Shown: positions 31,763-57,544 of the stretch, one piece after another
Position numbering within the stretch: the stretch's first letter is position 1
How the letters are laid out: the number at the start of each line of letters is the position of its first letter
NCBI GenBank assembly: GCA_043826455.1
Contig: JBDRQD010000048.1
Span: forward strand, 160,001 to 224,000
Length of the DNA stretch: 64,000 nucleotides
Source: Candidatus Bathyarchaeota archaeon
GTDB lineage: Archaea; Thermoproteota; Bathyarchaeia; TCS64
Direction: 5' to 3'
Position numbers and translations under genes: made by a program
Notes under the pieces: generated by a model
The model's database searches: none
Told to the model about the DNA's origin: nothing
What the model saw: only the letters and a program-made list of their open reading frames with translations

Positions 31763-31790
31763 TTGATTAAAACAATTAAATTCATAACAG

Positions 31791-32441: not shown

Positions 32442-32529
32442 ACCCGCAACCTCCATTTTCTTTAATTTTTTAATATTAATAACAGATAATACATAAATTT
32501 CATATATACTTGTAGTAGACATTTCCCAG

Positions 32530-33492: not shown

Positions 33493-34416
33493 TTATTCTA
33501 AATCGAGGCTGGTGATGTCTAGGTTCAACTCCATGCCCAGAAGAAGATCAATGGCCTCGTAGAGCGTGTGCCTCAGACCCTCAAAGCTTTGGGGCTCAGG
33601 CAAACTCACACCCGTCTCCCCTAAAACCACTTCACGCAACTCCCCCACAACCTGGGAGAAAGCGTCGTCGCCCCCCCAGGGCCCCTCACCCAGCACCTCA
33701 ACTATGCGGCCGTCCCAGGCACGGTAAAGGGCTTCAACCACCAGGTAGCTGACCCGCCTGTTGAACCACCGGGGGCTGTGCCTGGAGGCCGCGCTCACCC
33801 CGCGGTAGAGGGTGTCGAGGGCGTCAGCCACCTCAGCCTTCAGCTCCTCCGGGTGCCTCCTGGACAAGAGGTTCCTCAAACCCTCAAAGCCCAGCCTGGC
33901 CACCGGCGCACTGTTAAGGGACTCCCTCTCAGCCTCTATCCTCTCCACCTGTTCCAAGGTCTCCCTCACCCTGACCCAGTCCACCCTGCCGTGGAGCCCC
34001 TCCAGCAACACGAAGAGGCTCTCAGCCAGCTCCATGTCCAGCTGCAGGTGGTTCAGCTGCGCCTCACGGGTCTCCCTGAACTCCTTCAACACATCGTCGA
34101 GGGCTTCACGCCGCCTCCGGATATCAGCATCCACCAGCACCCGGAGCTCCTCCACCTTCTCCGCCCCCCTGGAAAAGACTGACAGCTCCATCTCCTTCCC
34201 CTCCTGAAGGTAACCTACAGTAAGCTTCGCGGAGCTGGTGTATGGCTTCACACCCGTCTCCACGCGGACCCCCAGCGTCTGGCTCAGCCTGAAACCCGTC
34301 TCCTTCACCAGGCTCTTACCCATGAAACCCTTCTCGTAGCTGAGGGTCACCTCCCCGTCCTCGACCTTGAGGACACACGTCTTGCCGTCCGCCGTCTTCC
34401 CAAGGAGCTCAGGCAT
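33493..34416 (-). CDS. hypothetical protein (beta-rich N-domain, helical C-domain), in tubulin-like cluster
   Basis: 307-aa ORF overlapping the 3' end of 34409..36745 by 8 bp. Confidence 0.75.
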   Translation of the reverse strand: MPELLGKTADGKTCVLKVEDGEVTLSYEKGFMGKSLVKETGFRLSQTLGVRVETGVKPYTSSAKLTVGYLQEGKEMELSVFSRGAEKVEELRVLVDADIRRRREALDDVLKEFRETREAQLNHLQLDMELAESLFVLLEGLHGRVDWVRVRETLEQVERIEAERESLNSAPVARLGFEGLRNLLSRRHPEELKAEVADALDTLYRGVSAASRHSPRWFNRRVSYLVVEALYRAWDGRIVEVLGEGPWGGDDAFSQVVGELREVVLGETGVSLPEPQSFEGLRHTLYEAIDLLLGMELNLDITSLDLE

Positions 34417-37918: not shown

Positions 37919-40584
37919 CGCCCCTGCTCCTTCTTCAGCTCCGCCAGGATCTCCTCGATGCTCCCCTTATGCTCCACCAGGAAGCTGCGGCTGAGGCTGC
38001 TCTCGAACTCTGAGGCCTTCCTGTTGAGGCGCTCCATCTCGTCGTAGGGGGCCAGGTCCTCTATGGTTCCGCGGCCGGCGATGACCACGACCCTTATGAC
38101 CCAGGGGTCCCTGCACTCCACGACACGCACCGTGATGGTCTTGGATACGTCGCCTGTGACGTATGCGGCGAGGGCCGTGTAGAGCTCCTGGGTGAGGTCC
38201 TCGTCCCAGAGGCCCTGAGGCGTCTGGACGGTGACCCACAGGTAGTCGCTGCGGTATGTGCTCTTCATCCCCATGATGTTGGGGGTCCTGTAGATCCTGA
38301 CGATGCTCCTCATGTAGTCCTTGAAGTGGTCCACGTCCAGGATCTCCTCCAGGATGCCCTCCCTGTTGAGCTGGTCCTCCTGTTCGGCCAGGATCTTGTA
38401 GATGATCTTGCCCTGCTCGTCGCCTGTGAGCTCCGTGGTGCGCTCGTAGAACCTGTTGCTCTTTATGATGCCCTGGAGCTTCTCCTGGTAGTCCTCCATG
38501 AGGTCCAGGACCGTGTTGAGCTTCTTCCTGTACTCGCTGGTGACCTCCAGCTTCTTGGCCAGGTCCGTATAGAAGTCTATGAGGGTGTCCGTGGACCCTA
38601 TCTGGGCGTTGAGGTGGATCTCCTCCTCCCTGTTGCCGCTGAGCTCCCTCTCCAGATCCTTGAGCTTGTCCCTGGCGTACTTCTTCTTCCCGAAGAGGCT
38701 GAAGCCCTTGCTCTCCTTGTCGTACTTTTCGCGGTCGTACTCCTTCCGCTTCCTCCGCTCCTCGAGGCGGATGAGCTCGTTCTCCAGGTTCTCGCGCCTG
38801 CCCCTGAACTTGACGATGAGGGCTTGGAGGTAGGTGAGGTGCTCGTCGATCATCTTCACCTCGTCGCTGCTGGGCTTGATCATGAGCTGCAGCAGGTGGT
38901 AAATGGTGGTGAGCTCGGCTTTCATGTCCTTGAAGCTGATGTCCAGCTTCTCCTCCTCGGGCAGTATCTCGTACCGCCGCATGATGGCGTCTACGAAGTG
39001 CCTGTTCTCGTTGTAGAGCCTGAGGATGACCAGGGCCTTCTCCGTGATCTCCGTGAGGTTCATGAAGTCGTCCACCAGCTTCTTCTGCCGTATAGTGAGC
39101 TGCTGGCTGCTGGGCACTAGCTGCTGCAGGCGCTCGAAGATGGCCGCCTTCCTCACCTGGAACTCGGGGTGGGTCTTGGAGACGAACCTCATGAGGCCCT
39201 CCAGGCTGTCGATGGGCTGGGCCTCCTCACGGTGGAGGACGAGCTTGTTGATGCTGTCCTCTATGGTGCCCTCGCTGCTCACCAGCTTGATGGTGCTCAT
39301 GAACTGGTGGGCCTCATCTATCCACTTGTTGATCTGGTCCTCTATGCCTCGGACGTAGAGACTGTAATCCTCATCGAACCTGGGGCTGCCGTGGATGAGC
39401 TGCTCCACCTTCTCGTCGTACTCCTCGGCGTTGTAGGCGTTGGTCTTGATGAGGTAGTCCTTGTAGATCTCGCTGACCTCCTCCCGCTTCAGCTCCAGGA
39501 CGCTCTGGAGCTTGTCCAGGATGACCAGCTTATCCTTCCTGATCTCGGCCAGCTGCTGCATCTTCTCCAGGTTGCTCTTGAAGGCCGCCACGTAGGCGTC
39601 CACCGGGTAGTTGACCTTCACCATGCTGAGGGTGTGTATGATGTTCCCGCTGAGGCCCACCTCTGTGCCTATGCCGCTCATGAGGTCGGCCATGTCGAAG
39701 TCCATGAGGACGTAGATCATCTCAACGATCATCTTGTCGATCTCGTCCCTGGCCGTGATGATGTTCCCCGTCTTGCTGTACGCTGGCATGAGAGGCAGGA
39801 ACATGACGCTGTTGAAGGGGTTCCTGTAGACCTCGCCGAGGCCGTCCACAATGATCTCGTTCTGAACCCTGTCCAGCAGGAGGGACATCTCCTTGATGCC
39901 GTTGAAGGCGCTGTAGCCCTTGGCCGGGGGGTCGTCCCCGGGGCACGGCAGTATGCAGAGGCCTATGATGGGTACGCCGCTTCCCACGGCCTGTCGCAGG
40001 TGGCGGGCGAAGTCCATGGTCATGCCGCTTCCTGTTCCTCCGCCCAGGCCGAACACTATCATGATGATGGGGCTGTTGATGCTGCTGAGGGCGTTGTCCT
40101 TGAACATGTTTGTGAAGCTCTTGATGATGCCCAGCTGGTAGTAGTTCAGGTTGTAGATGGCCTTGGCCAGGCTCCTCCTCCTACCTGCGCCGCCCGCGAG
40201 GGGAGGTATAGCCACGGTGCTGGGTAGCCACGGGTAGTACTCCCTGATCTTGACGCCCTCGTTCTGGAGGTGCTCCTTGAACTTGGTCTGGACGAAGTCG
40301 AACATGGCCTCGGCGGAGGGAAACTTGACGCTCTTGGCTATTATGCTCAGACGGTCTTGGGGTATGCCCCTTCTCTTCATCTGCTCAAGGACCCTGTTGT
40401 AGGAGTCGTCCAGGCTCTTGATGTCAGGGTCCGCGATGTCCATGGCCAGCATGCTGAGCCTGGTGGCGCCGCTGCTGAGAAGATCCATGGTCTTCTCGTT
40501 CTTGAGGAAGTTCTCCACCACGTTGGTGCCTGCGCCGCCTAAGCCTACGAGGTGTATTACGCTGCTGTATCCGAGTTCCGACAT
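37915..40584 (-). CDS. FtsZ/tubulin-like GTPase (FtsZl1-like) with long coiled-coil insertion, 889 aa
   Basis: VGLGGAG, GAGRRR, FGLGGGTGSG, CILP and T7-like DFDMAD; ~430 aa of charged heptad-rich sequence before a beta-rich C-domain. Confidence 0.9.
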   Translation of the reverse strand: MSELGYSSVIHLVGLGGAGTNVVENFLKNEKTMDLLSSGATRLSMLAMDIADPDIKSLDDSYNRVLEQMKRRGIPQDRLSIIAKSVKFPSAEAMFDFVQTKFKEHLQNEGVKIREYYPWLPSTVAIPPLAGGAGRRRSLAKAIYNLNYYQLGIIKSFTNMFKDNALSSINSPIIMIVFGLGGGTGSGMTMDFARHLRQAVGSGVPIIGLCILPCPGDDPPAKGYSAFNGIKEMSLLLDRVQNEIIVDGLGEVYRNPFNSVMFLPLMPAYSKTGNIITARDEIDKMIVEMIYVLMDFDMADLMSGIGTEVGLSGNIIHTLSMVKVNYPVDAYVAAFKSNLEKMQQLAEIRKDKLVILDKLQSVLELKREEVSEIYKDYLIKTNAYNAEEYDEKVEQLIHGSPRFDEDYSLYVRGIEDQINKWIDEAHQFMSTIKLVSSEGTIEDSINKLVLHREEAQPIDSLEGLMRFVSKTHPEFQVRKAAIFERLQQLVPSSQQLTIRQKKLVDDFMNLTEITEKALVILRLYNENRHFVDAIMRRYEILPEEEKLDISFKDMKAELTTIYHLLQLMIKPSSDEVKMIDEHLTYLQALIVKFRGRRENLENELIRLEERRKRKEYDREKYDKESKGFSLFGKKKYARDKLKDLERELSGNREEEIHLNAQIGSTDTLIDFYTDLAKKLEVTSEYRKKLNTVLDLMEDYQEKLQGIIKSNRFYERTTELTGDEQGKIIYKILAEQEDQLNREGILEEILDVDHFKDYMRSIVRIYRTPNIMGMKSTYRSDYLWVTVQTPQGLWDEDLTQELYTALAAYVTGDVSKTITVRVVECRDPWVIRVVVIAGRGTIEDLAPYDEMERLNRKASEFESSLSRSFLVEHKGSIEEILAELKKEQGR

Positions 40585-41736: not shown

Positions 41737-42711
41737 TTGATGAGTGCGCCCCTGATCACCAGCGGCGTGATCAACGCCAGCCTCCTCGTGATACTGTGTA
41801 TAGGGTTCAACTTCACATACATGATGGAGAAGTTTCCCAACTTCGCTCACGCCAGCTACGCCAGCATAGGCACCATGATAGCCTTCTACTTGGTCAGGTT
41901 CCAGGGGTTCAACCCCTACGCCACGTGGCCTGCGGCGGCCCTGGGGGGCGGCGTCTTAGGTGTGCTGCTGTACCTGGGCGTGGTGAAGCCTATAAAGGTG
42001 CACGGCTCGAGGGAGATCACCCTAACATTCACATTCTACATCATCAGCCAGATCATAGGCTCGGCCCTGGCCATGTTCAGTTACTGGCTCCTCATCGTCA
42101 CGCGCATCCAGTCGAGGGGGTTCCTGCTCTCCAGCTTCGATTTCAGGGTTGAGGGCGTGCCCGGCATAGGGTTTACCGCCCCCGTGACGGTTGTACTTCT
42201 GGTGGGTGCCCTGAACGTATTCCTGTACAGGTCCAAGTACGGTATCGCCATGAGGGCCACCGCTGAGGACGAGTGGCTGGCCTCCAGTCTTGGGGTGAAC
42301 GTGGACCTCATCCACGTCGCATCCTGGTTCATCTCTGGGGCGCTGTCGGCGCTTGCGGGGGCCATTCTTCCCATGTGGAGGGCCACCAGTGTTAATTTCA
42401 GCGACGAGCTTCTCGTCCAGGTCATGGCGGGCAGCGTCTTGGGGGGAATCACCAGCATTTCAGGAGCCATACTGGGTGGCTTCCTGGTGGCCACGAGCCA
42501 GAAGCTTCTGGTGACGTATCTCGTGAGGGCCCTCGGGGTATGGGTTATGGCCTATGAGGCTCTGATCCCCATGGTGATGCTCTTTCTGGTGTTGGCTGTC
42601 GAGCCCAACGGGTTGACGGCCCTCAAAGTGGAGAAGGCATCGTTTCGCGGTGTTAGTGAGTCTATCAGGAGGCTGAGGAGGACTCTGTGGAACCTTCTCA
42701 CATCTGAGTGA
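41737..42711 (+). CDS. livH: branched-chain amino-acid ABC transporter permease (LivH-like), orphan
   Basis: NFAH, GIAMRATAED..LAS.LGVN and VLGG..SI.GA..GG motifs. Confidence 0.88.
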   Translation: MMSAPLITSGVINASLLVILCIGFNFTYMMEKFPNFAHASYASIGTMIAFYLVRFQGFNPYATWPAAALGGGVLGVLLYLGVVKPIKVHGSREITLTFTFYIISQIIGSALAMFSYWLLIVTRIQSRGFLLSSFDFRVEGVPGIGFTAPVTVVLLVGALNVFLYRSKYGIAMRATAEDEWLASSLGVNVDLIHVASWFISGALSALAGAILPMWRATSVNFSDELLVQVMAGSVLGGITSISGAILGGFLVATSQKLLVTYLVRALGVWVMAYEALIPMVMLFLVLAVEPNGLTALKVEKASFRGVSESIRRLRRTLWNLLTSE

Positions 42712-42770
42712 GCGTCGCCACATTTCCGCTATTTGGTGCCCATCCACCCATACAATCGTTTAACACAATA

Positions 42771-42797
42771 CAGGCAAAATTAGGCAACGTTAGGCAA
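42771..42797 (+). repeat. three YAGGCAA direct repeats at 10-bp period
   Basis: CAGGCAA at 42771, TAGGCAA at 42781 and 42791, in an AT-rich intergenic region. Confidence 0.55.
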
Positions 42798-42967
42798 GTT
42801 ATTGATTGATCTATATATTAACTAGTATATTATCCGCGTTTGAGACACTATATAAACAATTAACAGATTAAAATCAAAAAAGCCTTAGATGATACCTAAA
42901 ATTTAACCCATTAACATAAGATAAATCATTACTTCCCACCGAAGCTCAAATAAAACAGGTGAAACAA

Positions 42968-43048
42968 ATGGCAAAGAAGCCGACACCCGCTCCGAAGCCC
43001 GCGGAGAAGAAGCCTGAGAAGCCCGCCGAGAAACCGAAGAAAAAGTGA
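42968..43048 (+). CDS. 26-aa Lys/Pro/Ala/Glu-rich small basic peptide, not in ORF track
   Basis: MAKKPTPAPKPAEKKPEKPAEKPKKK*; AGGTGA RBS just upstream; hairpin and T-run downstream. Confidence 0.6.
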   Translation: MAKKPTPAPKPAEKKPEKPAEKPKKK

Positions 43049-43054
43049 ACGATG

Positions 43055-43093
43055 TAACCTGCCTTCTCAGTCAGGTTAGATCACCCCCTTTTT
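43055..43093 (+). terminator. hairpin plus T-tract after the small peptide
   Basis: TAACCTG (43055-43061) / CAGGTTA (43072-43078) followed by CCCCCTTTTT. Confidence 0.45.
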
Positions 43094-43169
43094 AATCAAC
43101 CAAGCCTCACCGGAGGCTTTCACCTTGATCACTTCCCTTAAATGAGCCCGGGGAGATTGCTATCGAGCC

Positions 43170-45119
43170 ATGTCCCCCACCATCCATTGCCCCAACTGCG
43201 GCAGGGCCCACACGGTGGAGGAGTACGAGGAGGACCGGTTCTGCAGAGGCTGTGAGACCCTCCTGACCCTGTCAGGTGACGCGTCCCCGGGTTCCTGGAC
43301 GCGCCTGTTTCCCTACGAGCCCTACCCCCAGCAGGTGGAGTTCATGGAGGATGTGGTGTCCATCGTCGGCCGCGGCAAGGTGCTCGTAGCTGAGGCCTGC
43401 AACGGGTTCGGAAAGACCGTTAGCGCCCTAAGCTGCCTCCTGCCTCTCGGCCGGAGGATCATCTACGCTACCCGCACCCATGAGCAGGTGCGTCAGGTCC
43501 TGCTGGAGATGGAGAAGATCAACGAGAAGGCCGGGAAGGGATACACGGCTGTCAACCTGGCCAGCAGGGACCACCTGTGCGTCAACCCCGAGTGCAGGGA
43601 CCTCCCAGCCAATGAGAGCCAGGAGCTCTGCGGCGTACTGAGGAAGAGCGACGACTGCCCCTACATCAGTGAACTGGACAAGCCGCCCACGGGGCTGCCC
43701 AAGATACTCACCAGGGAGGTCCTCATAGAGGAGGGCCGGAAAAGGAAGATGTGCCCCTACTACCTGGCCAGGCGCATGATGAAGGAATGCCACCTAGTGG
43801 TGGCCCCCTACCCCTACGTGTTCAACCCCATGATCAGGCTCACCACGGGCCTGGACCTGGGGGGCAGGGTGCTGGTGCTGGACGAGGGCCACAACGTTGA
43901 CCAGGTGGGCCAGGAGATACTCAGCGACACCCTCTCGGAGAGGGGCCTCAGCGCCGCCGCCGAGGAGATGAGGCTCATAGGGAAGTCGCCACGGTTCATC
44001 GACAGGCTGGGGGAGTACCTGCTTAAATCAGACTCCGAGAGGCCCCGGCTGGTCTCAGCCGAGGCCCTGGAGAGGGACCTGGAGCTGACTCTGGGCATGA
44101 GCATAAGCACCTTCATGGACGGCCACGCCCCCCTGGTGGAAGCAATAAGGGCGAGGAAGGCCAAGGACGGGAACCCGCCCGTCTGCTTCCTCAACGGGCT
44201 CCTCGGCTTCTTCGAGCTCCTTCAGGGCAGCGTGAAGGAGAAGTACGTGGGGGTCTACACGCGGAGCTACTACGGGGCCCCCGTAATCGAGTACAGGTGC
44301 CTGGACCCCAGCCTGGCCGTGGCCCCCGTGGTGGCCGAGGCCCGCGGCGTGCTGGTGATGAGCGGTACCCTCAGCCCCCTGGACACCTTCGCCGAGATCA
44401 TAGGGCTGGGGGACGCCGAGAAGCGCTCCTACCCCAGCATCCAGCGCTCCGACAGGATCAGGATGGTGGTGGACGCCTCCGTCACCACCCAGTACAGGGA
44501 ACGGAGCGACGAGATGATCACCCGGATGGGGGAGACCATAGGCAGGGAGCTGGAGACGGTGAAGCAGGGGGCCCTCATCTTCTTCACCCAGAGGGGCTTC
44601 ATGAACAGGTGCCTGGATGTCTGGGCCGGGGATCGTATACTGAAGGCTCATGGGGGCCGCCTCCTCCTGGCCGGGAAGCAGCTGTTCCGGGAGGGCCGGG
44701 ACGCGACCCAGAATAGGGACGTGGTGGTTAGGTACAAGAGGATGGCCGTGGGGGTCGGCGGAGCCGTCCTCTGCTGCGTCTTCAGAGGCAGAAACAGCGA
44801 GGGCAGCAACTTCCCCGGGGACCAGGCCCGGGGTATATTCCTGGTGGGGGTGCCCTATGCCAACTACGGCGACCCCCTGGTGAAGGCCCAGATAAGGTAC
44901 TACAACGGGCTGAGGCCCGGCCTGGGCAACCGGTGGTACACCATGGACGCCTACAGGGCCGCCAACCAGAGCCTGGGCAGAGGCATAAGGGGCAGGGACG
45001 ACTGGTGCCACTACTGGCTACTGGACCGGAGGTACGCCGAGAACCTGGGCCTCATAACCAGGTGGGCCCAGGGGGACGGAGCGGAGGTCAGGAGAGGCCC
45101 CGCACAACAGACGTTTTAA
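43170..45119 (+). CDS. xpd: XPD/Rad3/DinG Fe-S DNA helicase with N-terminal zinc ribbon
   Basis: CPNC...CRGC, Q motif PYPQQ, NGFGKT, RTH.Q, Fe-S cysteines ending CPYY, DEGHN, SGTL.P, EG.NF, QSLGR.IR, LDRRY. Confidence 0.93.
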   Translation: MSPTIHCPNCGRAHTVEEYEEDRFCRGCETLLTLSGDASPGSWTRLFPYEPYPQQVEFMEDVVSIVGRGKVLVAEACNGFGKTVSALSCLLPLGRRIIYATRTHEQVRQVLLEMEKINEKAGKGYTAVNLASRDHLCVNPECRDLPANESQELCGVLRKSDDCPYISELDKPPTGLPKILTREVLIEEGRKRKMCPYYLARRMMKECHLVVAPYPYVFNPMIRLTTGLDLGGRVLVLDEGHNVDQVGQEILSDTLSERGLSAAAEEMRLIGKSPRFIDRLGEYLLKSDSERPRLVSAEALERDLELTLGMSISTFMDGHAPLVEAIRARKAKDGNPPVCFLNGLLGFFELLQGSVKEKYVGVYTRSYYGAPVIEYRCLDPSLAVAPVVAEARGVLVMSGTLSPLDTFAEIIGLGDAEKRSYPSIQRSDRIRMVVDASVTTQYRERSDEMITRMGETIGRELETVKQGALIFFTQRGFMNRCLDVWAGDRILKAHGGRLLLAGKQLFREGRDATQNRDVVVRYKRMAVGVGGAVLCCVFRGRNSEGSNFPGDQARGIFLVGVPYANYGDPLVKAQIRYYNGLRPGLGNRWYTMDAYRAANQSLGRGIRGRDDWCHYWLLDRRYAENLGLITRWAQGDGAEVRRGPAQQTF

Positions 45120-45153
45120 GCCCACGGGGACCAAAAGAGTTTAGTGACCTTCC

Positions 45154-46134
45154 GTGCCCACTGGCTACTTTCTGGGGGTGGACGGCGGAGGAACCGCCAC
45201 CAGGGCAGTGATAGTGTCGCCTGGGGGCAGGGTCCTGGCCGCCGGGAGAGCCGGGCCCTCTAACCCCATCACCGTGGGCGCCGACAGGGCCCTGGCCAGC
45301 ATACTGGAGGCCGTGAACATGGCCTCAGCCAAGTGCGGAGTAGACCGGTTCAAGGCTAGCAGGCTAGGTGTTGCCGGAACAGACCGATCCAGGCTGAGGC
45401 AGAAGCTGCTAGCTGGGCTGCCCGACTCCTATGGAGACACAGCCGTGACCAGTGACGCCGCCGCGGCGCTGGCCGGGGCCACGGGCTGCAGGCCCGGCGT
45501 GGTGGTGATAGCGGGTACGGGCTCTATCGCCTACGGGGAGAACCACCGGGGCATGGCGGCCCGGGCAGGCGGCTGGGGGTGGAGGCTGGGGGACGAGGGA
45601 AGCGGCTACACCATAGGCAGGAACGCCATACTGGCCGCCTTGAGGGCGCACGACGGCCGAACCCCGGATACAGTTCTCCGGGAAATGATCCTTGGCTACC
45701 TGGGCCTGAGCGCTGTGGAGGAGATCATAGACTGGATGTACGCCCCGGGGAGGGAGCCCCGGGACGTGGCCTACCTGGTGCCCCTGGTCAGAGACGCCGA
45801 GGCGGCGGGAGACGAGGCTGCCAAGCTGGTGATGGCCGAGGCGGGCGCGGAGCTGGGCCACGTGGCCAACGCCGTCATAAGGAGGCTGGGCCTCACCGGG
45901 GGGTTCCCTGTGGGCCTCAATGGTGGCGTGTTCAAACAGCCCAGCGTCTACATCATGGCCTTCGAGGAGGTGGTGCGGAGGGAGGCGCCGGACTGCGCCC
46001 TCATCAAGCCGCGGATGCCCCCCGTCCTGGGTGCAGCCCTCCTCGCCCTGAAATCCACGGGCGTGAGCATAGACGACGGCCTGCTCCGGGCCGTGGAGGA
46101 GAGCTACGGTTCGCTAGGTGACGACCATGATTAA
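45154..46134 (+). CDS. BadF/BadG-family N-acetylglucosamine/N-acetylmuramate kinase (MurK-like)
   Basis: GVDGGGT, IAGTGS and RAGGWG..LGDEGSGY motifs; precedes murQ. Confidence 0.88.
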   Translation: MPTGYFLGVDGGGTATRAVIVSPGGRVLAAGRAGPSNPITVGADRALASILEAVNMASAKCGVDRFKASRLGVAGTDRSRLRQKLLAGLPDSYGDTAVTSDAAAALAGATGCRPGVVVIAGTGSIAYGENHRGMAARAGGWGWRLGDEGSGYTIGRNAILAALRAHDGRTPDTVLREMILGYLGLSAVEEIIDWMYAPGREPRDVAYLVPLVRDAEAAGDEAAKLVMAEAGAELGHVANAVIRRLGLTGGFPVGLNGGVFKQPSVYIMAFEEVVRREAPDCALIKPRMPPVLGAALLALKSTGVSIDDGLLRAVEESYGSLGDDHD

Positions 46135-47017
46135 GGTGACCGAGAGCCTGAACCCCGCCTCCAGGGGCATAGACTCCAAGGAGGTCGGGGAAATACTGAG
46201 GATCATCAGCGCGGAGGACTCCGTGGTGGCGGAGTCCGTGGCCGCTCAGCTGCCCAACATAGGCAGGGCCGTGGAGCGGATCGTTGAAACCGTCCGCGGC
46301 GGAGGCACAGTGTTCCTAGTGGGCGCCGGGACCAGCGGTCGCCTCTGCGTGCTGGAGGCCGCGGAGGTGCCGCCCACCTTCGGGGTGCCCCCCACTCTGT
46401 TCCAGGGGGTGCTGGCGGGGGGAATCCCGGCCCTGGTGGGGTCGGTGGAGGCAGCTGAGGACAGCCCTGAGGCCGCTCGAGCCGATCTAGTGTCCCGAGG
46501 CTTGAAGCCATGTGACCTGGTTGTGGGGGTCACTGCATCAGGGGCCACCCCCTACACGCTGGAGGCTGTGAGGTTCGCAGGTGAGGTGGGGGCAGCAACG
46601 GTGAGCGTATCATGCAACCCAGGCTCTCCCCTTTCCGGCTATGTGGACGTGGCCATCGAGGTGGTGGTAGGCCCCGAGGCCGTGGCCGGCTCCACCCGGA
46701 TGAAGGCGGGGACAGCCCAGAAGATGGTGCTCAACATGCTCACCACGGCGTCCATGGTAAGGCTGGGCCGCGTCCACGACGGCTACATGGTGGGGGTTCA
46801 GGCCACCAACGCGAAACTGGTGGACCGGAGCAGGAAAACCCTTTCCGCCGTGACAGGACTTTCCCCGGAGGAAGCGGGGCCGGTGCTGGAGGCAGCCGGC
46901 GGAGACCTGCGGGGGGCCGTCGTGATGACCCTTGCGGGGGTCGGGGCAGGCGAGGCTAAAAAGGCCCTGGAGGGCTGGATTTCAGTGAGAGAGGCGTTAC
47001 GGAGACTAGAAGAATGA
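46127..47017 (+). CDS. murQ: N-acetylmuramic acid 6-phosphate etherase
   Basis: TE..NP, GAGTSGRL...EVPPTFG, EAAED and GPE...GSTRMKAGTAQKMVLNM motifs. Confidence 0.96.
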   Translation: MIKVTESLNPASRGIDSKEVGEILRIISAEDSVVAESVAAQLPNIGRAVERIVETVRGGGTVFLVGAGTSGRLCVLEAAEVPPTFGVPPTLFQGVLAGGIPALVGSVEAAEDSPEAARADLVSRGLKPCDLVVGVTASGATPYTLEAVRFAGEVGAATVSVSCNPGSPLSGYVDVAIEVVVGPEAVAGSTRMKAGTAQKMVLNMLTTASMVRLGRVHDGYMVGVQATNAKLVDRSRKTLSAVTGLSPEEAGPVLEAAGGDLRGAVVMTLAGVGAGEAKKALEGWISVREALRRLEE

Positions 47018-48012
47018 TTCCTGAGAGGGGCGTATCCTACTATGGCGTGGCCTACCCGGACCGCGCCGCGGGTGACTACGCCGAGATGGTGGACCACGGC
47101 TGCAACGCCGTGCTTCTCGCGGTATCCGAGTTCGACTGGTGGTTCTGGCGGAAGAACGTCATCAGGCTCATAGACGTGGCCAAGGACCACGGGCTTAAAA
47201 CCTATGTGGACCTGTGGGGCTGGGGCAAGACCCTGGCCGGGGAGCCCCCCAGCCTCTTCCTCATGAGGAGCCTGGAGGGCAGGCAGAGGGCCGCGTCCGG
47301 CAAGACTTACCACGCCACGTGCCTGAACCACGGCGCCTTCAGGGAGCACTTGAGGCGCAGCGTAGAGGAGCTGGTCACCGAGACGTGCCTGGACGGCCTC
47401 TTCTGGGACGAGCCCCACTACGCCAACTGGCATGACAGTGACTGGGCCTGCACATGCAGCATATGCGGCGCATTGTACAGGGACAGGTACGGGGAGGACA
47501 TGCCCCTGGAGCTGACGCCTAGGGTAATAGAGTTCAGGGAGGACAGGGCCGTGGGGTTCCTCAGGGAGCTGAGCGTCTACGTCAAGGAGGCGGACCCCAC
47601 CGTGGACGTGGTCTGCTGCCTACTGCCCACCAAGAGCCCCCTAATAGGCATCACTGACTGGGAGAAGGTGGCAGCCATACCGGAGCTGGACACCCTGGCC
47701 ACGGACCCCTACTACTTCCACACCGGTATGAGCCGGGAGGAGGGCCTAGCCTTCTTCAGGGAGACCAGCATGGACTGCATGAGCCTCGCCCAGAGGCACG
47801 GAAAGCTGAGCCAGCTCTGGCTCATGGCCTTCAGAGTGCCCGTGGGGAGGGAGGGTGAGCTATCCGAGGCCGCCGACATAGCTGCCGAGCTGGGCGCCGA
47901 CTCCCTCTTCGCGTGGCCCTACAGGGGAGGCGAGGGCAGCGTACTGGCCTCAGGGGACCCGTGGAGGGTCTGGGACGCCATAGGGGCCGCCTACAGGAGG
48001 CACGCGGCCTGA
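47014..48012 (+). CDS. uncharacterised TIM-barrel glycoside-hydrolase-like protein
   Basis: Alternating beta/alpha pattern, DGLFWDEPH, CTCSIC, TDPY; ATGA overlap with murQ. Confidence 0.65.
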   Translation: MIPERGVSYYGVAYPDRAAGDYAEMVDHGCNAVLLAVSEFDWWFWRKNVIRLIDVAKDHGLKTYVDLWGWGKTLAGEPPSLFLMRSLEGRQRAASGKTYHATCLNHGAFREHLRRSVEELVTETCLDGLFWDEPHYANWHDSDWACTCSICGALYRDRYGEDMPLELTPRVIEFREDRAVGFLRELSVYVKEADPTVDVVCCLLPTKSPLIGITDWEKVAAIPELDTLATDPYYFHTGMSREEGLAFFRETSMDCMSLAQRHGKLSQLWLMAFRVPVGREGELSEAADIAAELGADSLFAWPYRGGEGSVLASGDPWRVWDAIGAAYRRHAA

Positions 48013-48014
48013 CC

Positions 48015-49166
48015 GTGAAGGCAGGCGTAGATGTTCTTCTTGGTGATCCCCGAGGCTTCCTCGGGGGCGACGCCGTTGGCCTGGTCACCAACCCCACGGG
48101 GGTGACCCGCCGTCTCGAGTCCACTCTGGACGCCCTTCACAGTAATCCTGATGTCAACTTGAAGGCAGTGTTTGGACCTGAGCACGGAGCTAGAGGCGAT
48201 ATTCAGGACGCCTTGCTGGTGGAGGGCCACGTGGACGAGGCCACGGGGCTGCCCGTGCACAGCCTCTACGGTGAGCACATGGCGCCGACCATTGAGATGC
48301 TGGACGGCCTTGACGCCCTGGTCTTCGATATCCAGGACTGCGGCGCCAGATTCTACACCTACGTCTCGACGCTGACCTACTGCATGGAGGCGGCCGCCCG
48401 GGACGGCCTGGGCGTGGTGGTCCTTGACAGGCCGGACCCCATCAACGGGCTCAGCGTCGGGGGCGGCGTCCTGAGGCCCGGGTTCGAGTCCTTCATCGGC
48501 CTGCACCCCGTTCCGTTTAGGCACGGCCTCACGATGGGGGAGCTGGCTTCATTCATCAACACGGGAATCGGCTGCCGGCTTGAGGTCGTGGAGCTGGAAG
48601 GGTGGAGCAGGGCCATGTGGTACGACGAGACCGGCCTGCCCTGGGTGCAGCCCAGCCCCAACATGCCCACCTTGGAGACGGCCATCGTTTTCCCAGGCAC
48701 ATGCCTCTTCGAGGGGGTGAACGCCATCGAGGGCAGGGGCACCACGCGTCCCTTCGAGTACTTGGGCGCCCCCTGGGTGGACGGGCGGCGGTGGACGGAC
48801 GCCATGAACGCCCTCAGGTTACCCGGCGCCGGGTTCAGGGCTTGCCACTTCACTCCCGCCTTCTGGAGGCACAGCGGCGAGAGGTGCGATGGCCTCCAGG
48901 TCCACGTCACCGACAGGAACGCGTACATACCCGTGGAGACCGGCGTCCACCTACTCTCCACCCTCATAGGGCTCCAGGGGGACAGGTTCAGGTTCAACGA
49001 GCCCACCTACGACAAGAGGAGGCACTTCGACCTCCTGGCCGGCACCGACAGGCTCAGGCTGAGTCTTATGGACGGCGAGCCGGTGCAGGAGATCGTGGGG
49101 GCCTGGGAGCCGGAGGTGGAGCGATTCGTGAAGAGTAGGGAGAGGCACCTGCTGTACGGTGAGTGA
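48015..49166 (+). CDS. namZ: exo-beta-N-acetylmuramidase (DUF1343/GH171)
   Basis: LVTNPTG, FGPEHG, SLYG, FDIQDCGARFYTY, PSPNMP and EGRGTTRPFE motifs; no signal peptide. Confidence 0.94.
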   Translation: MKAGVDVLLGDPRGFLGGDAVGLVTNPTGVTRRLESTLDALHSNPDVNLKAVFGPEHGARGDIQDALLVEGHVDEATGLPVHSLYGEHMAPTIEMLDGLDALVFDIQDCGARFYTYVSTLTYCMEAAARDGLGVVVLDRPDPINGLSVGGGVLRPGFESFIGLHPVPFRHGLTMGELASFINTGIGCRLEVVELEGWSRAMWYDETGLPWVQPSPNMPTLETAIVFPGTCLFEGVNAIEGRGTTRPFEYLGAPWVDGRRWTDAMNALRLPGAGFRACHFTPAFWRHSGERCDGLQVHVTDRNAYIPVETGVHLLSTLIGLQGDRFRFNEPTYDKRRHFDLLAGTDRLRLSLMDGEPVQEIVGAWEPEVERFVKSRERHLLYGE

Positions 49167-49169
49167 GCT

Positions 49170-50327
49170 ATGGCTGGTTACACTATCAGGGGGACCATGG
49201 TTACGCCCTTCGAGCTGATCTCGGGGGGCCAGGTGGAGGTCACGGACGGCACCATAAGCTACGCGGGACCCAGGCGGGCGGCCGCGGGCCACGTCATCGA
49301 CCACGCCGACGACCTGGTGTGCCCCGGATTCATAGACCTCCACGTCCACGGGGGAGCCGGCGTCGACACCATGGACCCCGACCCGGAGGCCCTCAGCAGG
49401 CTCTCAACGTACCTGGCCACTGGGGGCGTCACAGGGTTCTTGGCCACCACCCACACGGCCCCCAAGGAGGAGCTGATAACGGCCCTCTGCAGAGTCGAGG
49501 CGGCCCAGAGGATGGGCACGCCCGGGGCTGTCATCCTTGGGGCCCACGTGGAGGGGCCCTTCATCAGCGAGGAGAAGAAGGGGGCCCAGGACGGCGGCCA
49601 GGTGAGACAGGCCACAGAGATGGAGCTGGACGCCCTCTACACGGCGTCAGGGGGCACATTGAAGATCATGACTCTTTCCCCAGAGACAGGGGACGCTCTG
49701 AGGGCTGTGGAGTGGCTGGTGGAGAGGGGCGTCGTCGCAGCGGCGGGCCACACGGACGCGTCCTACGAGGAGGCGCTGCGAGCCTTCGACCGCGGTATCA
49801 CGCATTTAAGCCACTTCTATAATGGCATGAGAGGGCTTCATCATAGAGAACCCGGGGTAGTGGGAGCTGGTTTGACCGATGGCAGGGTCAACCTGGAGCT
49901 TGTGGCCGACGGAGTCCACGTCCACCCCGCCGCCCTTAGGCTGGCCGTGTTAGCCAAGGGCCCCGCCAAGATAGCCCTGGTGAGCGACTCAGTGAAGCCC
50001 GGGGGACTCCCGGACGGCGAGTACAGCTTCGGTGGCAGAGCGGTTCACGTGAAAGGCAGAAACATCACGCTGCGGGGCGGCGTCATCGCCGGCAGCGGGA
50101 TAAGGCTCAACGACGCTATCGCCACCATGGTGGAGGAGGCAGGCGTCGCCCTCACGGAGGCCGTGCAGATGGCTTCCAACACCCCCGCTAGGATACTCAA
50201 GCTGACGCCCCGCAAAGGCAGGCTGGAAGAAGGCGCAGACGCCGACATCACGGTAATAGACTGGAGGTACAGGGTCCTGAGGACCATCGTCGGCGGAGAG
50301 ACAGTGTACGAGGCTGAGCAACAATGA
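49170..50327 (+). CDS. nagA: N-acetylglucosamine-6-phosphate deacetylase
   Basis: PGFIDLHVHG, HVEGPF, GHTDA, HFYNGM, DGVHVHP and VSD motifs. Confidence 0.96.
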   Translation: MAGYTIRGTMVTPFELISGGQVEVTDGTISYAGPRRAAAGHVIDHADDLVCPGFIDLHVHGGAGVDTMDPDPEALSRLSTYLATGGVTGFLATTHTAPKEELITALCRVEAAQRMGTPGAVILGAHVEGPFISEEKKGAQDGGQVRQATEMELDALYTASGGTLKIMTLSPETGDALRAVEWLVERGVVAAAGHTDASYEEALRAFDRGITHLSHFYNGMRGLHHREPGVVGAGLTDGRVNLELVADGVHVHPAALRLAVLAKGPAKIALVSDSVKPGGLPDGEYSFGGRAVHVKGRNITLRGGVIAGSGIRLNDAIATMVEEAGVALTEAVQMASNTPARILKLTPRKGRLEEGADADITVIDWRYRVLRTIVGGETVYEAEQQ

Positions 50328-51511
50328 AGGATAGGCATGATGTCCAGCTGCAACGAGCCAAAGCCTCAAGAAGAATCCTCGGCCTCATGTCAGGCACCTC
50401 AGCTGACGGCGTCACAACTGCCCTAACTGAGATAACGGGCACCGGGGCCACCGCCAAGATCAGGCTCCTCGCCCACGGCACATACCCGTACCCCGAGGAG
50501 GTGAGCCGCCGCCTCTTCAACCTCTTCACCCCAGGCGCGTCCACCATCCGGGACGTGTGCGAGATGAACTTCGTCGTCGGCGAGTGCTTCGCGGACGCCG
50601 CCCTCAGGCTCCTGGATGACCACGGGCTGAGCCCAGAAGAAGTGGACCTGGTGGGCTCTCACGGCCAGACCGTGTGGCACCAGCCCCAGGCGAAGCCCGT
50701 CGCAGGCATCGACGCTGATTCGACCCTCCAGATAGGTGAGCCCGCCGTCATATCCATGCGCACCGGGCTGCCCGTGGTGGCCGACTTCAGGAAGGCGGAC
50801 ATGGCGGCCGGGGGCCAGGGCGCGCCTCTGACGCCGTACCTTGACTACGTCCTCCACAGGCACCCCTCAAAGAGCATCATACTCCAGAACATCGGGGGCA
50901 TAGCGAACCTCACCTACATCCCGGCCTCCACCTCCCCAGGCGACGTGGTGGCCTTCGACACCGGGCCCGGGAACATGATCATAGACGCCGTGGCCCGCCG
51001 CTACACGGGCGCAAGCCACGACGTGGACGGCGGCCTGGCCAGAACCGGCACTGTCCACCGGGAGCTCCTTGCCGATCTGATGAGTCACCCCTACTACGGC
51101 AGGACTCCGCCCAAAACCACAGGCCGCGAGATGTTCGGCGAACAGTACGCCGCCGAGGTCATAAGGCGGGGAGAGTCTATGGGGCTGCCCCCAGGAGATA
51201 TTGCCGCGACCGTCACGGCCTTAACCGTGGAGACCATCGCTGACGCCTACATGAGGCACCTGCCCAGTGCAGTGGACGAGGTCTACGTCTCAGGAGGCGG
51301 CTCGAAGAATCCGGCCCTAATGGATGAGCTGAGGAGCAGGCTCAGCACCCCCGTCCGCAACTACTCTGAGCTTGGGTTCCCAGGCGAGGCCAAGGAGTCG
51401 GTACTGGTGGCTCTCCTGGCCAACGAGTACATCATGGGCACTCCATGCAACATGCCCTCTGCTACGGGTGCACGGCAGCGGGTCGTGTTGGGCTCCGCCA
51501 CATGGGTTTAA
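50324..51511 (+). CDS. anmK: anhydro-N-acetylmuramic acid kinase
   Basis: GLMSGTSADG, GSHGQTVWH, DFR..DMAAGGQGAPL, NIGGIAN and FDTGPGN motifs. Confidence 0.96.
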   Translation: MKDRHDVQLQRAKASRRILGLMSGTSADGVTTALTEITGTGATAKIRLLAHGTYPYPEEVSRRLFNLFTPGASTIRDVCEMNFVVGECFADAALRLLDDHGLSPEEVDLVGSHGQTVWHQPQAKPVAGIDADSTLQIGEPAVISMRTGLPVVADFRKADMAAGGQGAPLTPYLDYVLHRHPSKSIILQNIGGIANLTYIPASTSPGDVVAFDTGPGNMIIDAVARRYTGASHDVDGGLARTGTVHRELLADLMSHPYYGRTPPKTTGREMFGEQYAAEVIRRGESMGLPPGDIAATVTALTVETIADAYMRHLPSAVDEVYVSGGGSKNPALMDELRSRLSTPVRNYSELGFPGEAKESVLVALLANEYIMGTPCNMPSATGARQRVVLGSATWV

Positions 51512-51576
51512 CCCAACAATTTACTTGGGTAAAGACATATATGGGTAAATGTGGTTTTGGTAAACTAGTGACCTGG

Positions 51577-51813
51577 TTGGCCGAGACCACTTACCACGAG
51601 AACAAGATATACGTCCCCGCAGAGGTACGAGAGAAGCTGGGCCTCAGACCCGGTGAGAAGCTCAACATCGTCATGCTGGATAAGCGGAGCTTCAAGGTGG
51701 AGCTTCAGAGAAGACTCCCCGAAGAGGAACTGGACGACGAACTCATAAGCCCCTCCAAGGTAGGAGTGCCGGCTAAGCTCACCCGTAGGGAAATATACGA
51801 TGATATATGTTGA
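51577..51813 (+). CDS. AbrB/MazE/SpoVT-family antitoxin
   Basis: KIYVPAEVREKLGLRPGEKL motif; overlaps the PIN gene; start TTG 51577 or ATG 51541. Confidence 0.85.
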   Translation: MAETTYHENKIYVPAEVREKLGLRPGEKLNIVMLDKRSFKVELQRRLPEEELDDELISPSKVGVPAKLTRREIYDDIC

Positions 51814-52303
51814 CCGCGCGCCCCTCCACGAGAGCCCCCACGCGGCCAAGCGGTTACTCCTGGACACCATGATCCTGTGCTACGCCCACGACAGCCTGAG
51901 CCCCCACAACTGCAGAGCCAGCCTCATAGTCAGGGCCGCCATCCACGGCCACATCAGAACCCAGCTGAGCTACCAGAACCTGTCAGAGTTCTACGCCGTC
52001 GTCACAGGCAGACGGGTGGTCAATCCCCTGACGCAGGACCACGCCGCCCGGCTCTGCAGGCTCTACATGGGCTGCGCAGAGATCGGGCTCATATCGCCCA
52101 CCAGGGAAACGTACGCCGAAGCCTTCGCGTCCCTAGGCGAAAGACGGGTCGCCGGAGGCGACGTGTTCGACCACATACTCGCCTACACTGCCAAGGACAG
52201 GGCCGACACCATCTGGACCGACAACACCAGGCACTTCCAGGGCTATCCCTTCCTCAACGCTGAGAACCCCCTCGACTGGGATTGGGAGGAGACTCCGAAG
52301 TAA
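51800..52303 (+). CDS. vapC: PIN-domain (VapC-like) toxin
   Basis: LLDT, LSEFY, FD..LA and IWTDN..HF motifs. Confidence 0.85.
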   Translation: MIYVDRAPLHESPHAAKRLLLDTMILCYAHDSLSPHNCRASLIVRAAIHGHIRTQLSYQNLSEFYAVVTGRRVVNPLTQDHAARLCRLYMGCAEIGLISPTRETYAEAFASLGERRVAGGDVFDHILAYTAKDRADTIWTDNTRHFQGYPFLNAENPLDWDWEETPK

Positions 52304-52439: not shown

Positions 52440-53630
52440 ATGAGTAAAACAGCCCTATCGAAGGCTCTCAAGAGGATCGACGAGAACCGGATCATCGAGC
52501 TCGCCAAGGAGCTCATAGGAGTCCCCAGCGTCACGGGCCAGGAGAAGGCCGTCATGCACCGCGCCAAGGGCCTCCTGGAGGACGCCGGGGTCCCCGTCAC
52601 CTTCCACGGCGGCGAGGACAGGCCCATCATCGAGGCCGTCCTCAACCCCGGCGCCGAGAGGCAGCTGATATTCAACGGCCACCTGGACGTGGTGCCCATA
52701 GCCAGGCCCGACGCATGGACCAGGAAGCCCTGGGACCCCGTCCTGGAGGACGGCAGGCTCTACGGCAGGGGCGCCAGCGACATGAAGAGCAGCTGCGCAG
52801 TGATGATACACCTTATGGAGCTCCTCAGAGACGCTGACCTGCCCCTCAGCGTCGGTGTCCACCTGGTGCCCGACGAGGAGAAGGGCGCACAGTACGGCTC
52901 CAAGGTGCTAGTGGACAAGATAGTGGCGGGGGAGATGAGGCGCCCAGACTATGTGGTCATCGGTGAGCAGAGCAACCTGAAGGTGAGGGTCGCTGAGCGC
53001 GGCATGTTCGGGTTCCAGGTCAAGTTTCTCGGGCGGGCGGCTCACACGGCGGCCTGCAGGACCAACGGGGTGAACGCCATAGCCAAGGCCTCCAAGGGGG
53101 TCCTGGCCCTGGAGCACCACATAGACAAGTTCCACCCCTGGATAGGCCACCCCATGCAGAGCGTCAACATCATCCAGGGTGGGACAGTCACCAACCAGGT
53201 GCCCGCCGAGTGCACCATCACCGTGGACCGGCGCCTCGTCATCGGGGAGACCGCCGACGACGTAGTGGAATCGGTCAAGGCCGACCTGGACAAGGCTGGA
53301 GAGGGGGACCTCGACTGGAGCTGGGAGATGGTAGCCCCCAAGGACGATAAAGGAGAATGGGTTTACACCCCCGCCAACTTCACTCCACCGGACACGCCCC
53401 TGGGAGAAGCCTTCATGAAGGCGGTGCCCGCCGCCCTGGGCACGGAGCCGGAGCTCTACGTGGAGTGGGCCGGCAGCACCGACGGCCGCCTCTACAGGCA
53501 GGCCGGCATCCACACCATAGGCTTCGGGCCCGTAGGGTTCGGAGCCCACGGCCCCGACGAGTTCGTCATCGTGGACAGCCTCATGAAGCAGGCCAGGGTC
53601 TACGTGGCCCTGGTCCATGGGCTCGGCTAG
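52440..53630 (+). CDS. M20 (ArgE/DapE-family) metallopeptidase/deacylase
   Basis: NGHLDVVP, YGRGASDMK, DEE, GE and AHGPDE motifs. Confidence 0.93.
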   Translation: MSKTALSKALKRIDENRIIELAKELIGVPSVTGQEKAVMHRAKGLLEDAGVPVTFHGGEDRPIIEAVLNPGAERQLIFNGHLDVVPIARPDAWTRKPWDPVLEDGRLYGRGASDMKSSCAVMIHLMELLRDADLPLSVGVHLVPDEEKGAQYGSKVLVDKIVAGEMRRPDYVVIGEQSNLKVRVAERGMFGFQVKFLGRAAHTAACRTNGVNAIAKASKGVLALEHHIDKFHPWIGHPMQSVNIIQGGTVTNQVPAECTITVDRRLVIGETADDVVESVKADLDKAGEGDLDWSWEMVAPKDDKGEWVYTPANFTPPDTPLGEAFMKAVPAALGTEPELYVEWAGSTDGRLYRQAGIHTIGFGPVGFGAHGPDEFVIVDSLMKQARVYVALVHGLG

Positions 53631-56377: not shown

Positions 56378-57544
56378 CTACCTTCTGTTGAACACTGTGA
56401 GGCCTATGAAGGCTGCCGCAGCCAGGGCCCCGCTGTACAGGCTGGAGACCCATAGGCCCTGGGTCTGCCACAGGGCGCCCACAACGGAGTTGGCCACCAG
56501 GAAAGCTGTCCCCACCACCAGGTAGTAGAGGCCGTAGGCGGTGCCCCTGAGCCCGGCCTCCACGTAGCCCGGGACCAGGGCCCGCTGAACCGTCTCCACC
56601 ACACCGACGTAGGCACCGAAGACCGCCGCCGCCACGTAGGCCGAGACTACAAGCCTGGGGCTTAGAGCCAGCAGCGCGACTGAAGCCAGGAACACTAGGT
56701 AGCCGTAAGATAGAACCTTCTCCTTGCCCACCCTGTCCGCCAGCCTACCAGCCGGGATGGCCACTAGGGTGTGGGCGACGTTCACCACCGCGTACACCAC
56801 CGGGATGAGGGCGTCCCCCACCCCCATCTCCTTGGCGTTAAGCAGAATGAAGCTGAAGTTGAAGGCCCCTAGGCTGAACATGGCGACTATGCCTAGCAGC
56901 ACCAGGAACCTGCCCCTGGCCACCTCCCTCAGCCCCTGAAGGAACCTGAACTCCCTGAGCTCATCGCCCACGATCTCCTTGACGCCGAAGAGGATTATTA
57001 CCAGGGCTATTGTGCCCGGAACCAGTGAGAGCCAGAAGACCTCCCGGACGGTCCAGCCCAGGAACACCATCACGGCGGTCGCCACCAGCGGCCCCACTAT
57101 GGCTCCCGTCTGGTCCAGGGTCCTGTGGAGGCCGAAGGCCTCCCCTCTCCTGCCCGCCGGCACCGAGTCGCTTATCAGGGCGTCCCGGGGCGCTGTCCTT
57201 ATGCCCTTACCCACCCTGTCCGCGACCCTGATGATGAGGGCGTCCGTCACCGTGGAGGCGGCGGCGAAGAAGGGCTTCACCACGTTGGACAGGGCATAGC
57301 CCAAGATGATGAAGGGCTTCCTGCGCCTGAACTTGTCGCTGAAGACACCTGAGACGGCCCTGAGCATGTAGCTGAGGGCCTCCGCCACCCCCTCGATGAA
57401 TCCTAGGGTGGCCACGCTTCCTCCGGGCAGCCCCAGAATGAAGACAGGTAGGATGCTGAACACCATCTCGCTGGACACGTCGGTGAAGAAGCTGACGAAG
57501 CCCAGCATGTACACGTTCCTGATGTCCTCGTTTCCTTCTCCCAT
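56378..57544 (-). CDS. MFS transporter
   Basis: SFFTDVSSEM, GVFSDKFRRRKP, DRVGKGIRTAPRDAL and GRLADRVG motifs. Confidence 0.92.
   Translation of the reverse strand: MGEGNEDIRNVYMLGFVSFFTDVSSEMVFSILPVFILGLPGGSVATLGFIEGVAEALSYMLRAVSGVFSDKFRRRKPFIILGYALSNVVKPFFAAASTVTDALIIRVADRVGKGIRTAPRDALISDSVPAGRRGEAFGLHRTLDQTGAIVGPLVATAVMVFLGWTVREVFWLSLVPGTIALVIILFGVKEIVGDELREFRFLQGLREVARGRFLVLLGIVAMFSLGAFNFSFILLNAKEMGVGDALIPVVYAVVNVAHTLVAIPAGRLADRVGKEKVLSYGYLVFLASVALLALSPRLVVSAYVAAAVFGAYVGVVETVQRALVPGYVEAGLRGTAYGLYYLVVGTAFLVANSVVGALWQTQGLWVSSLYSGALAAAAFIGLTVFNRR

Follow-up and report, generated by a model that had tools for sequence, protein, structure and literature searches.

We examined a 64,000-nucleotide stretch of genome from a Candidatus Bathyarchaeota archaeon (hereafter the window), which belongs to a 273-kb contig in a 2.95-Mb metagenome-assembled genome (MAG; 97.7% complete, 7.2% contaminated) and carries an operon of six genes related to those that process the amino sugars of bacterial peptidoglycan. 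All six are intact and on the forward strand. The first encodes a MurK-like sugar kinase of the BadF family (45154-46134; PF01869, 152 bits), putatively acting on N-acetylmuramic acid (MurNAc) as well as N-acetylglucosamine (GlcNAc), and is followed by murQ, encoding MurNAc 6-phosphate (MurNAc-6-P) etherase (46127-47017 from an ATG, with an alternative GTG start at 46118; NF003915, 345 bits, cut-off 168). The third product, here called GHx (47014-48012), is an unclassified TIM-barrel glycosidase resembling glycoside hydrolase (GH) family 42 and, judged by its model, its residues and its alternation with NagZ, a candidate exo-β-N-acetylglucosaminidase replacing NagZ. The remaining genes encode the exo-β-N-acetylmuramidase NamZ (GH171; 48009-49166, from a probable CTG start; PF07075, 278 bits, and PF20732, 172 bits), the GlcNAc 6-phosphate (GlcNAc-6-P) deacetylase NagA (49170-50327; TIGR00221, 319 bits, cut-off 226) and the 1,6-anhydro-MurNAc (anhMurNAc) kinase AnmK (50324-51511; PF03702, and NF007148 with 472 bits, cut-off 387).

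The kinase gene and murQ overlap by 8 bp (17 bp with the GTG start), and the subsequent junctions are ATGA, CTGA, a 3-bp gap and ATGA. The CTG at 48009-48011 overlaps the upstream stop codon and is preceded at 8 nt by GGAGG; among 28 loci from relatives, the codon aligned to this position is TTG in 18, ATG in 2 and CTG in 2, and translation of namZ most likely begins at CTG 48009. GC content at third codon positions is 0.78-0.88 in the six genes, with a genome median of 0.82, and their codon-bias distances fall between the 7th and 76th percentiles of 758 size-matched open reading frames (ORFs). An initial annotation, made from the sequence alone, had described tightly coupled genes of host-like composition, long ameliorated, with no transporter in the operon; the frames do lie where it placed them, free of internal stops and joined by overlaps or the 3-bp gap, the composition agrees with the genome, and none of the genes encodes a transporter. 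An Rfam scan of the window gave no matches, and a promoter and terminator scan, using bacterial models on an archaeal host, gave nothing useful. In one RNA data set (run X22) we saw a few short contigs that are 90-95% alike, or less, and carry no information on expression.

Family models and residues place five of the products in known enzyme families, and the intact-looking motifs noted initially are retained across relatives in MurQ, NamZ, NagA and AnmK. The kinase, which is the sole BadF match in the genome, has a MurNAc/GlcNAc kinase (8zo3, 146 bits) as its best solved relative, and scores 124 bits with the Sulfolobus hexokinase 2e2n. The available text of PMC10465942 gives small residues around the lactyl site as characteristic of MurK; when residues are mapped by sequence, Ser100 (Ser, Gly or Thr in 18 of 18 rows) occupies the position of a clashing His in the Sulfolobus enzyme, and Asp77 matches an Asp in the Sulfolobus enzyme and equally one in 8zo3. 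MurQ also exceeds the NF009222 cut-off (339 bits against 255), and E83 and E114 (E. coli numbering), which we take to be the catalytic glutamates, are invariant in 73 of 73 rows. NamZ has both its N-terminal and C-terminal domains and keeps the motifs PEHG (E57) and EGRGT (R242; numbered from 48012), by motif position the putative equivalents of the proposed Glu92 and Arg279. It lacks a hydrophobic N-terminal stretch (maximum KD12 hydropathy 1.23, versus 2.73 in the S49 control), a result that concerns its location and not its family. In NagA, the metal and catalytic residues H58, H60, E128, H194, H215 and D273 are conserved. AnmK exceeds the cut-offs of three AnmK models besides NF007148, with D212 unchanged in all 113 rows and E358 present in every ungapped row; these residues would correspond to Asp182 and Glu326 of the Pseudomonas enzyme, which are catalytic and Mg-linked respectively according to the available text of PMC10570956.

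An alternative is that these enzymes have drifted to other substrates, such as levoglucosan or other anhydrosugars, chitin-type glycans or archaeal glycans, and that peptidoglycan is not their target. Two observations weigh in this direction and against a peptidoglycan role: by score the closest solved structure to AnmK is a fungal levoglucosan kinase (267-289 bits, versus 194-228 bits for solved proteobacterial AnmKs), and MurQ carries a D80E change shared by 24 of 24 family rows. MurQ also falls narrowly below the TIGR00274 cut-off (298.8 against 302), which likewise counts against that role. However, the AnmK motifs HGQT-x-x-H and TLQIG agree with bacterial AnmK rows, and the fungal kinase differs at both; moreover, the characterized MurQ and NamZ enzymes are MurNAc-specific in the available text of PMC8054146, and both are kept together with AnmK here. 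We regard such a substrate shift as improbable.

GHx is the least familiar of the six proteins. It has no match in Pfam or NCBIfam, and its nearest 30 clusters in the ESM Atlas have no Pfam family in common. An AlphaFold2 model of its 332 residues (pLDDT, the predicted local distance difference test, 95.5) is a TIM barrel whose top fold matches are GH42 catalytic domains (Z 26.8, root-mean-square deviation 2.8, 304 residues aligned), although many glycosidase families tie with GH42 to within 1-2 Z. GHx and the GH42 β-galactosidases (6lvw, 1kwk, 5xb7) both have a TIM barrel with an acid/base Glu after β4, and GHx has a GH42-type Cys cluster (C103/C146/C148/C151), but it differs in having Asp-Glu rather than Asn-Glu or Gln-Glu, in lacking an acid at β7 and in having no C-terminal domains. 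The Asp-Glu pair lies within W-D-E-P-H after β4 (strand 128-132), with D132 in 59 and E133 in 60 of 60 rows. Column 272, matched by hhalign to the Glu in a GH42-like protein with a probability of only 40, holds no acid in any of the 60 rows (A in 25, G in 18, N in 11, S in 4 and L in 1 among the residues listed), and the nucleophilic Glu at the end of β7 that marks GH42 and clan GH-A is thus absent. Adjacent Asp-Glu after β4 is the GH20-like arrangement; substrate-assisted N-acetylhexosaminidases use such a pair and have no nucleophile. The GH20 model PF00728 matches none of the 60 GHx members. Together, these features suggest that GHx is GH20-like in mechanism yet lies outside GH20.

No GH3 of any kind, and hence none of the NagZ type, was found in this genome, a gap that speaks against the salvage pathway proposed below; because that pathway needs an exo-β-N-acetylglucosaminidase, GHx is a candidate for the missing role. 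Its distribution bears on this. Among 34 anmK-positive genomes of the host family, 11 have only GHx, 17 have only a NagZ-type GH3, one has both, and five have neither, two of these five having GH20 and three being 69-85% complete (Fisher p 1.8e-4 for exclusivity, with kinship ignored). On the operon tree there are six independent pairs, about four in favor, none against and two uninformative (sign test p 0.125). The 37 anmK-negative genomes include one with a NagZ-type gene and three with GHx, all 64-78% complete and two of them carrying kinase-murQ-GHx at a contig end. The GH3 proteins of this family are assigned by NF003740 (216 bits, cut-off 207, one member scored). They are themselves a family-specific, NagZ-like type (L200:5231-6778 and orthologues) with the altered motif KHFPGKA..P.DPH and a retained Asp-His (D-x-H) pair, and occur almost only in anmK-positive genomes.

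Alternatively, GHx could be an accessory glycosidase, for example one that acts on an alpha-linked substituent of a wall polymer with D132 as nucleophile in the manner of GH29 or GH151. Outside the family, GHx homologues adjoin murQ, namZ or anmK in none of 12 phylum loci and none of four metagenome loci, and three genomes of family f49 hold GHx together with a GH3 bearing the canonical NagZ motif; these two observations count against NagZ replacement and favor an accessory role, as do a weak alignment of the D132 region with the alpha-L-fucosidase 6tvk (E 0.13) and the lack of significance in the independent-pair test. Against an accessory role stand the near-exclusive occurrence of GHx and NagZ and the position of GHx between murQ and namZ in every family locus read, as well as a bacterial homologue directly before anmK (L094) and the presence of MurQ in 10 of 17 GHx-positive phylum genomes, versus 37 of 400 overall. 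We give NagZ replacement by GHx in this archaeon an even chance, and put the accessory role at slightly below that. Exclusivity of GHx and NagZ does not extend simply to the phylum, where the pattern is mixed: in six GHx-positive f45 genomes 13 of 16 GH3 loci lack the NagZ motif, it is present in the three GHx-positive genomes of f49, and neither occurs in G626.

We conclude that the operon very probably serves an inherited, cytoplasmic salvage of bacterial peptidoglycan sugars in a family of Bathyarchaeia. In the pathway that we propose, soluble, peptide-free bacterial fragments (MurNAc, anhMurNAc, MurNAc-GlcNAc and GlcNAc-(anh)MurNAc) would enter the cell through a putative transporter. NamZ would remove terminal MurNAc, and an exo-β-N-acetylglucosaminidase terminal GlcNAc, namely the NagZ-type GH3 in most relatives and here, with about even probability, GHx. 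The BadF kinase would phosphorylate MurNAc and GlcNAc, AnmK would convert anhMurNAc to MurNAc-6-P, MurQ would cleave this to GlcNAc-6-P and D-lactate, and NagA would yield glucosamine 6-phosphate (GlcN-6-P) and acetate. Whereas genes, families, residues, synteny and distribution are observed, substrates, transport and the fates of products are inferred from them.

An intracellular setting for this scavenging is indicated by hydropathy, which reveals no signal peptide or membrane helix in the six proteins, and by a genome search in which no Amidase_2, Amidase_3 or M23 protein was found. NamZs are inactive on peptide-bearing walls in the available text of bioRxiv 10.1101/2021.12.02.470905, and therefore the fragments taken up are most likely soluble ones, shed by bacteria or left at their lysis. 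The use of bacterial cell-wall debris proposed in the initial annotation thus stands as a coherent route from MurNAc and anhMurNAc to GlcN-6-P, with debris narrowed to soluble fragments released by others. Two importer candidates fared poorly, which weighs against the proposal. A major facilitator superfamily protein in the window (56378-57544) has close orthologues in anmK-negative genomes (for example G258, G282, G215, G189 and G009), and none was found in many anmK-positive ones; the sole PF01547 match for a sugar ABC binding protein is weak and of the phosphate type by its neighbors. The genome also encodes S66 peptidases (two) and proteins of the beta-lactamase family (six, with 24-28% identity to an AmiE-like query). 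A cluster of beta-lactamase-fold hydrolases and peptidases (L232, G000 C2:38000-50000) may handle D-peptides.

The initial annotation had named carbon, nitrogen and amino sugars as possible gains, and the last is the best supported. A search of the 71 family genomes found NagB in none and GlmD above its cut-off in none (three weak matches are GlmS-sized frames of 594-607 aa), and the host genome encodes GlmM and GlmU proteins, two of each, above cut-off; salvage of amino sugars therefore fits better than growth on hexosamine, with GlcN-6-P most likely passing through GlmM and GlmU to UDP-GlcNAc. Full catabolism, in which an FrlB-like SIS protein or GlmS would deaminate GlcN-6-P to fructose 6-phosphate and so provide carbon, nitrogen and energy, seems unlikely, if far from negligible. 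It draws on the FrlB-like protein encoded on contig C46, on archaeal phosphoglucose/phosphomannose isomerase (PGI/PMI), and on an intact-looking GlmS, whose retention means that salvage is not essential for supply; yet no deaminase of the NagB or GlmD type was found, and the SIS protein lies beside a fructoselysine-kinase-like gene and matches FrlB at 154 bits versus 52 for NagB-II. With amino-sugar salvage as the preferred outcome, carbon or energy could nonetheless be drawn from D-lactate and acetate, and D-lactate is perhaps oxidized by an FAD dehydrogenase linked to electron-transfer flavoprotein. The candidate, a GlcD-like FAD oxidoreductase adjoining etfA (C50), scores 390 against a GlcD cut-off of 568, which tells against the assignment of this putative substrate. 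A search of 8737 ORFs for MurA and MurB motifs gave no match, and it gave none in control loci either. The FrlB-like deglycase and FrlD-like kinase genes form a pair (L229:5764-7604, G000 C46) that points to possible fructoselysine use.

Of 70 other genomes in the host family, 33 gave an AnmK match, mostly at one shared xpd-M20 site, and the host genus accounts for 21 of them among its 31 genomes; AnmK was also above cut-off in seven other genomes among 400 drawn from the class (4 of 7, 2 of 59 and 1 of 6 in three families, and 0 of 104 in the largest family); in all such counts kin are not independent, and absence from a MAG means only that the gene was not found. We examined the anmK locus in all 33 positive family genomes. 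The gene order and both flanks are the same across four genera, with xpd directly before the kinase gene in 13 of 33 loci and an M20 peptidase gene after anmK in 20 of 33; many of the remaining loci are cut off by the end of a contig, rearrangements are seen in a few, and in both genomes of genus g14 the genes are arranged differently, along with GH20 and a PIG-L deacetylase. Among ten anmK-negative members of the genus, five were chosen for completeness, and in all five xpd and the M20 gene are separated by only 40-104 bp. Because of the shared site and the empty sites, the operon is either old in the family and repeatedly lost, or was gained at one fixed site. In genome G008 (L116:4621-5773) anmK is broken into two frames near residue 253.

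Related genes extend across the phylum: 400 other genomes include 41 with NamZ and 37 with MurQ (35 with both, six with NamZ only, two with MurQ only and 357 with neither), and the NamZ-positive ones fall in 14 families. These archaeal loci also hold GH3 proteins with the NagZ motif, GH20, PIG-L deacetylase, AmiE-like neighbors and AnmK, and among them two named ones bear the titles Culexmicrobium and Culexarchaeum. The operon is real, is inherited as a trait of the family, has relatives throughout the phylum and is probably functional. In family f26 (L131, L133), anmK faces murQ and a gene of the AmiE-like type, and close by lie nagA and a YhfX gene that resembles one for alanine racemase. 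In family f49 (L225, L226), the kinase gene and murQ directly follow gapA-pgk-like glycolytic genes, as identified from N-termini, which suggests a catabolic link there.

We also considered whether an artefact of assembly or binning had placed bacterial DNA within an archaeal contig. The 7.2% contamination of the MAG leaves room for this, but identical order and flanks recur in many independent genomes with empty sites in others, codon use is host-like, and the AnmK sequences of the family form one clade. Run X1, which may be the source run, yielded a contig that spans 42500-51786 with zero differences and so covers both 45119-45154 and 51511, where the initial annotation had asked for continuity, and a contig from a separate study (run X5) bridges xpd and the kinase gene at about 92% identity. 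The closest named AnmK loci are 62-67% identical with the same gene order, three being titled Bathyarchaeia or Bathyarchaeota, and named close homologues of NamZ and GHx are labelled likewise; a homologue search with NamZ returned only close relatives. We consider the chance of an artefact negligible, and an archaeal host well supported.

The flanking genes lie outside the pathway. On the left, 43170-45119 (forward strand) encodes a Rad3/XPD-type helicase above the TIGR00604 cut-off; the other two genes that the initial annotation named on this contig also lie in the window and encode CarS (PF01864) and a RadB-like protein (TIGR02237, 125 bits, below the cut-off of 172). The right flank, an M20 (ArgE/DapE-like) peptidase gene at 52440-53630 (forward strand) conserved in synteny, was rejected as a pathway member since it remains next to xpd in genomes without the operon. 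Between anmK and M20, a forward-strand pair of AbrB/MazE-like and PIN-like genes (51445-52303, weak Pfam hits) has no tblastn match in the loci of relatives, and a contig from run X2 lacks it, with 51451 joined to 52324; this pair is a late insertion.

In the AnmK tree the host-family sequences form one clade (29 rows, SH-aLRT 94) and other archaeal AnmKs are placed elsewhere on a poorly resolved backbone; archaea are split likewise in the NamZ tree and in the MurQ tree, from which one distant, distorting SIS row was excluded. In the kinase tree 37 archaeal rows form one side against ten bacterial rows (support 91). Approximately unbiased (AU) tests did not reject a single archaeal clade for NamZ (p-AU 0.195; 44 of 71 rows, simpler model) or for AnmK (p-AU 0.426; 54 of 116 rows), and non-rejection does not demonstrate such a clade. 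The bacterial rows were limited to those among the 80 best AnmK loci, and no donor can therefore be named.

Elsewhere the window encodes a full bacterial-type set for non-homologous end joining (NHEJ) at 9096-15499, made up of a LigD polymerase domain (9096-10007), the Ku protein (13311-14117) and a LigD ligase with phosphoesterase (14114-15499), all of which exceed their NCBIfam cut-offs; complete NHEJ sets are uncommon among archaea. An 889-aa protein (37915-40584, reverse strand) combines a tubulin/FtsZ-like GTPase domain with a long coiled-coil insert and is 74-83% identical in relatives, and neither Pfam nor NCBIfam matches the neighbors of its gene at 33493-36745. A prenyltransferase/squalene-cyclase-like repeat protein (7206-8210, reverse strand) has only weak matches, and the region 29598-33393, with glycosyltransferase family 2 (GT2) and sulfotransferase genes, has lower GC (0.50-0.57).

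Searches of the openly available literature turned up no account of MurQ, AnmK or NamZ from an archaeon; annotation tables may nevertheless list such genes, and one database name already labels a Bathyarchaeia protein as NamZ-domain-containing. The available text of a 2021 survey reports that murein recycling enzymes were not found in archaea (PMC10117817), and that of a 2025 paper leaves open whether archaea scavenge peptidoglycan as food (PMC12352652). Bathyarchaeia are described among the most abundant classes in anoxic sediments in the available text of PMC10321748. The terms 'peptidoglycan' and 'muram-' are absent from the main text of three metabolic surveys of Bathyarchaeia, and 'peptidoglycan' from that of the Culexarchaeia and Caldarchaeales papers (texts searched include PMC13601601, PMC13228077, PMC10321748, PMC12694404, 10.64898/2026.05.21.726758, PMC9723716 and PMC10547907). 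The operon thus represents known chemistry in an unexpected host, and allows the question of peptidoglycan as an archaeal food to be tested using standard substrates and five soluble enzymes. What is new is GHx, a GH42-like barrel with an Asp-Glu pair and no β7 nucleophile that alternates with NagZ-type GH3, and it is a readily assayed candidate for a new glycosidase family. Only tentatively do we combine these points into a broader proposal, that wall sugars have been harvested since the family ancestor, and maybe from very early in the phylum, and that GHx founds a family of GH42-derived, nucleophile-less, substrate-assisted exo-β-N-acetylglucosaminidases interchangeable with NagZ.

E. coli recycles its own wall through AmpG, NagZ, AnmK, MurQ and NagA, and has NagB and no NamZ. 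The sequence from anhMurNAc through MurNAc-6-P, GlcNAc-6-P and GlcN-6-P to GlmM and GlmU is common to that route and the one proposed here (for the AnmK step, the available text of PMC10570956). B. subtilis murQ-murR-murP-amiE-nagZ-namZ, as described in the available text of PMC8054146, likewise has MurQ and NamZ in one operon with GlcNAc-6-P as product, and alternates an exo-muramidase with an exo-β-N-acetylglucosaminidase as we propose; in contrast, the NamZ here has no signal peptide, the host makes no peptidoglycan, two free kinases are used instead, and no MurP of the phosphotransferase system (PTS), MurR, AmiE or NagZ is encoded in the operon (ORFs of 43-54 kb). Closer in logic is namZ1-murT-murK-murQ of Tannerella forsythia, which, in the parts of 10.1101/2021.12.02.470905 and PMC10465942 available, shares PTS-independent uptake, a BadF-type MurNAc kinase, NamZ and MurQ, and likewise scavenges from neighboring bacteria, but T. 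forsythia requires MurNAc to build its wall, its NamZs are secreted, and no MurT or AmpG was identified here. Anaerobic ciliates, as portrayed in the available text of PMC13198582, are also wall-less and have transferred NamZ, anmK, murQ and nagB-PIGL genes with a proposed use of bacterial wall residues; they differ in being eukaryotes with scattered genes that include a deaminase. Archaeal peptidoglycan hydrolases (PMC12352652, whose main text mentions no NamZ, MurNAc, Bathyarchae- or Thermoproteota) are a further instance of archaea acting on peptidoglycan, but are secreted lytic enzymes; the operon described here is at the intracellular end.

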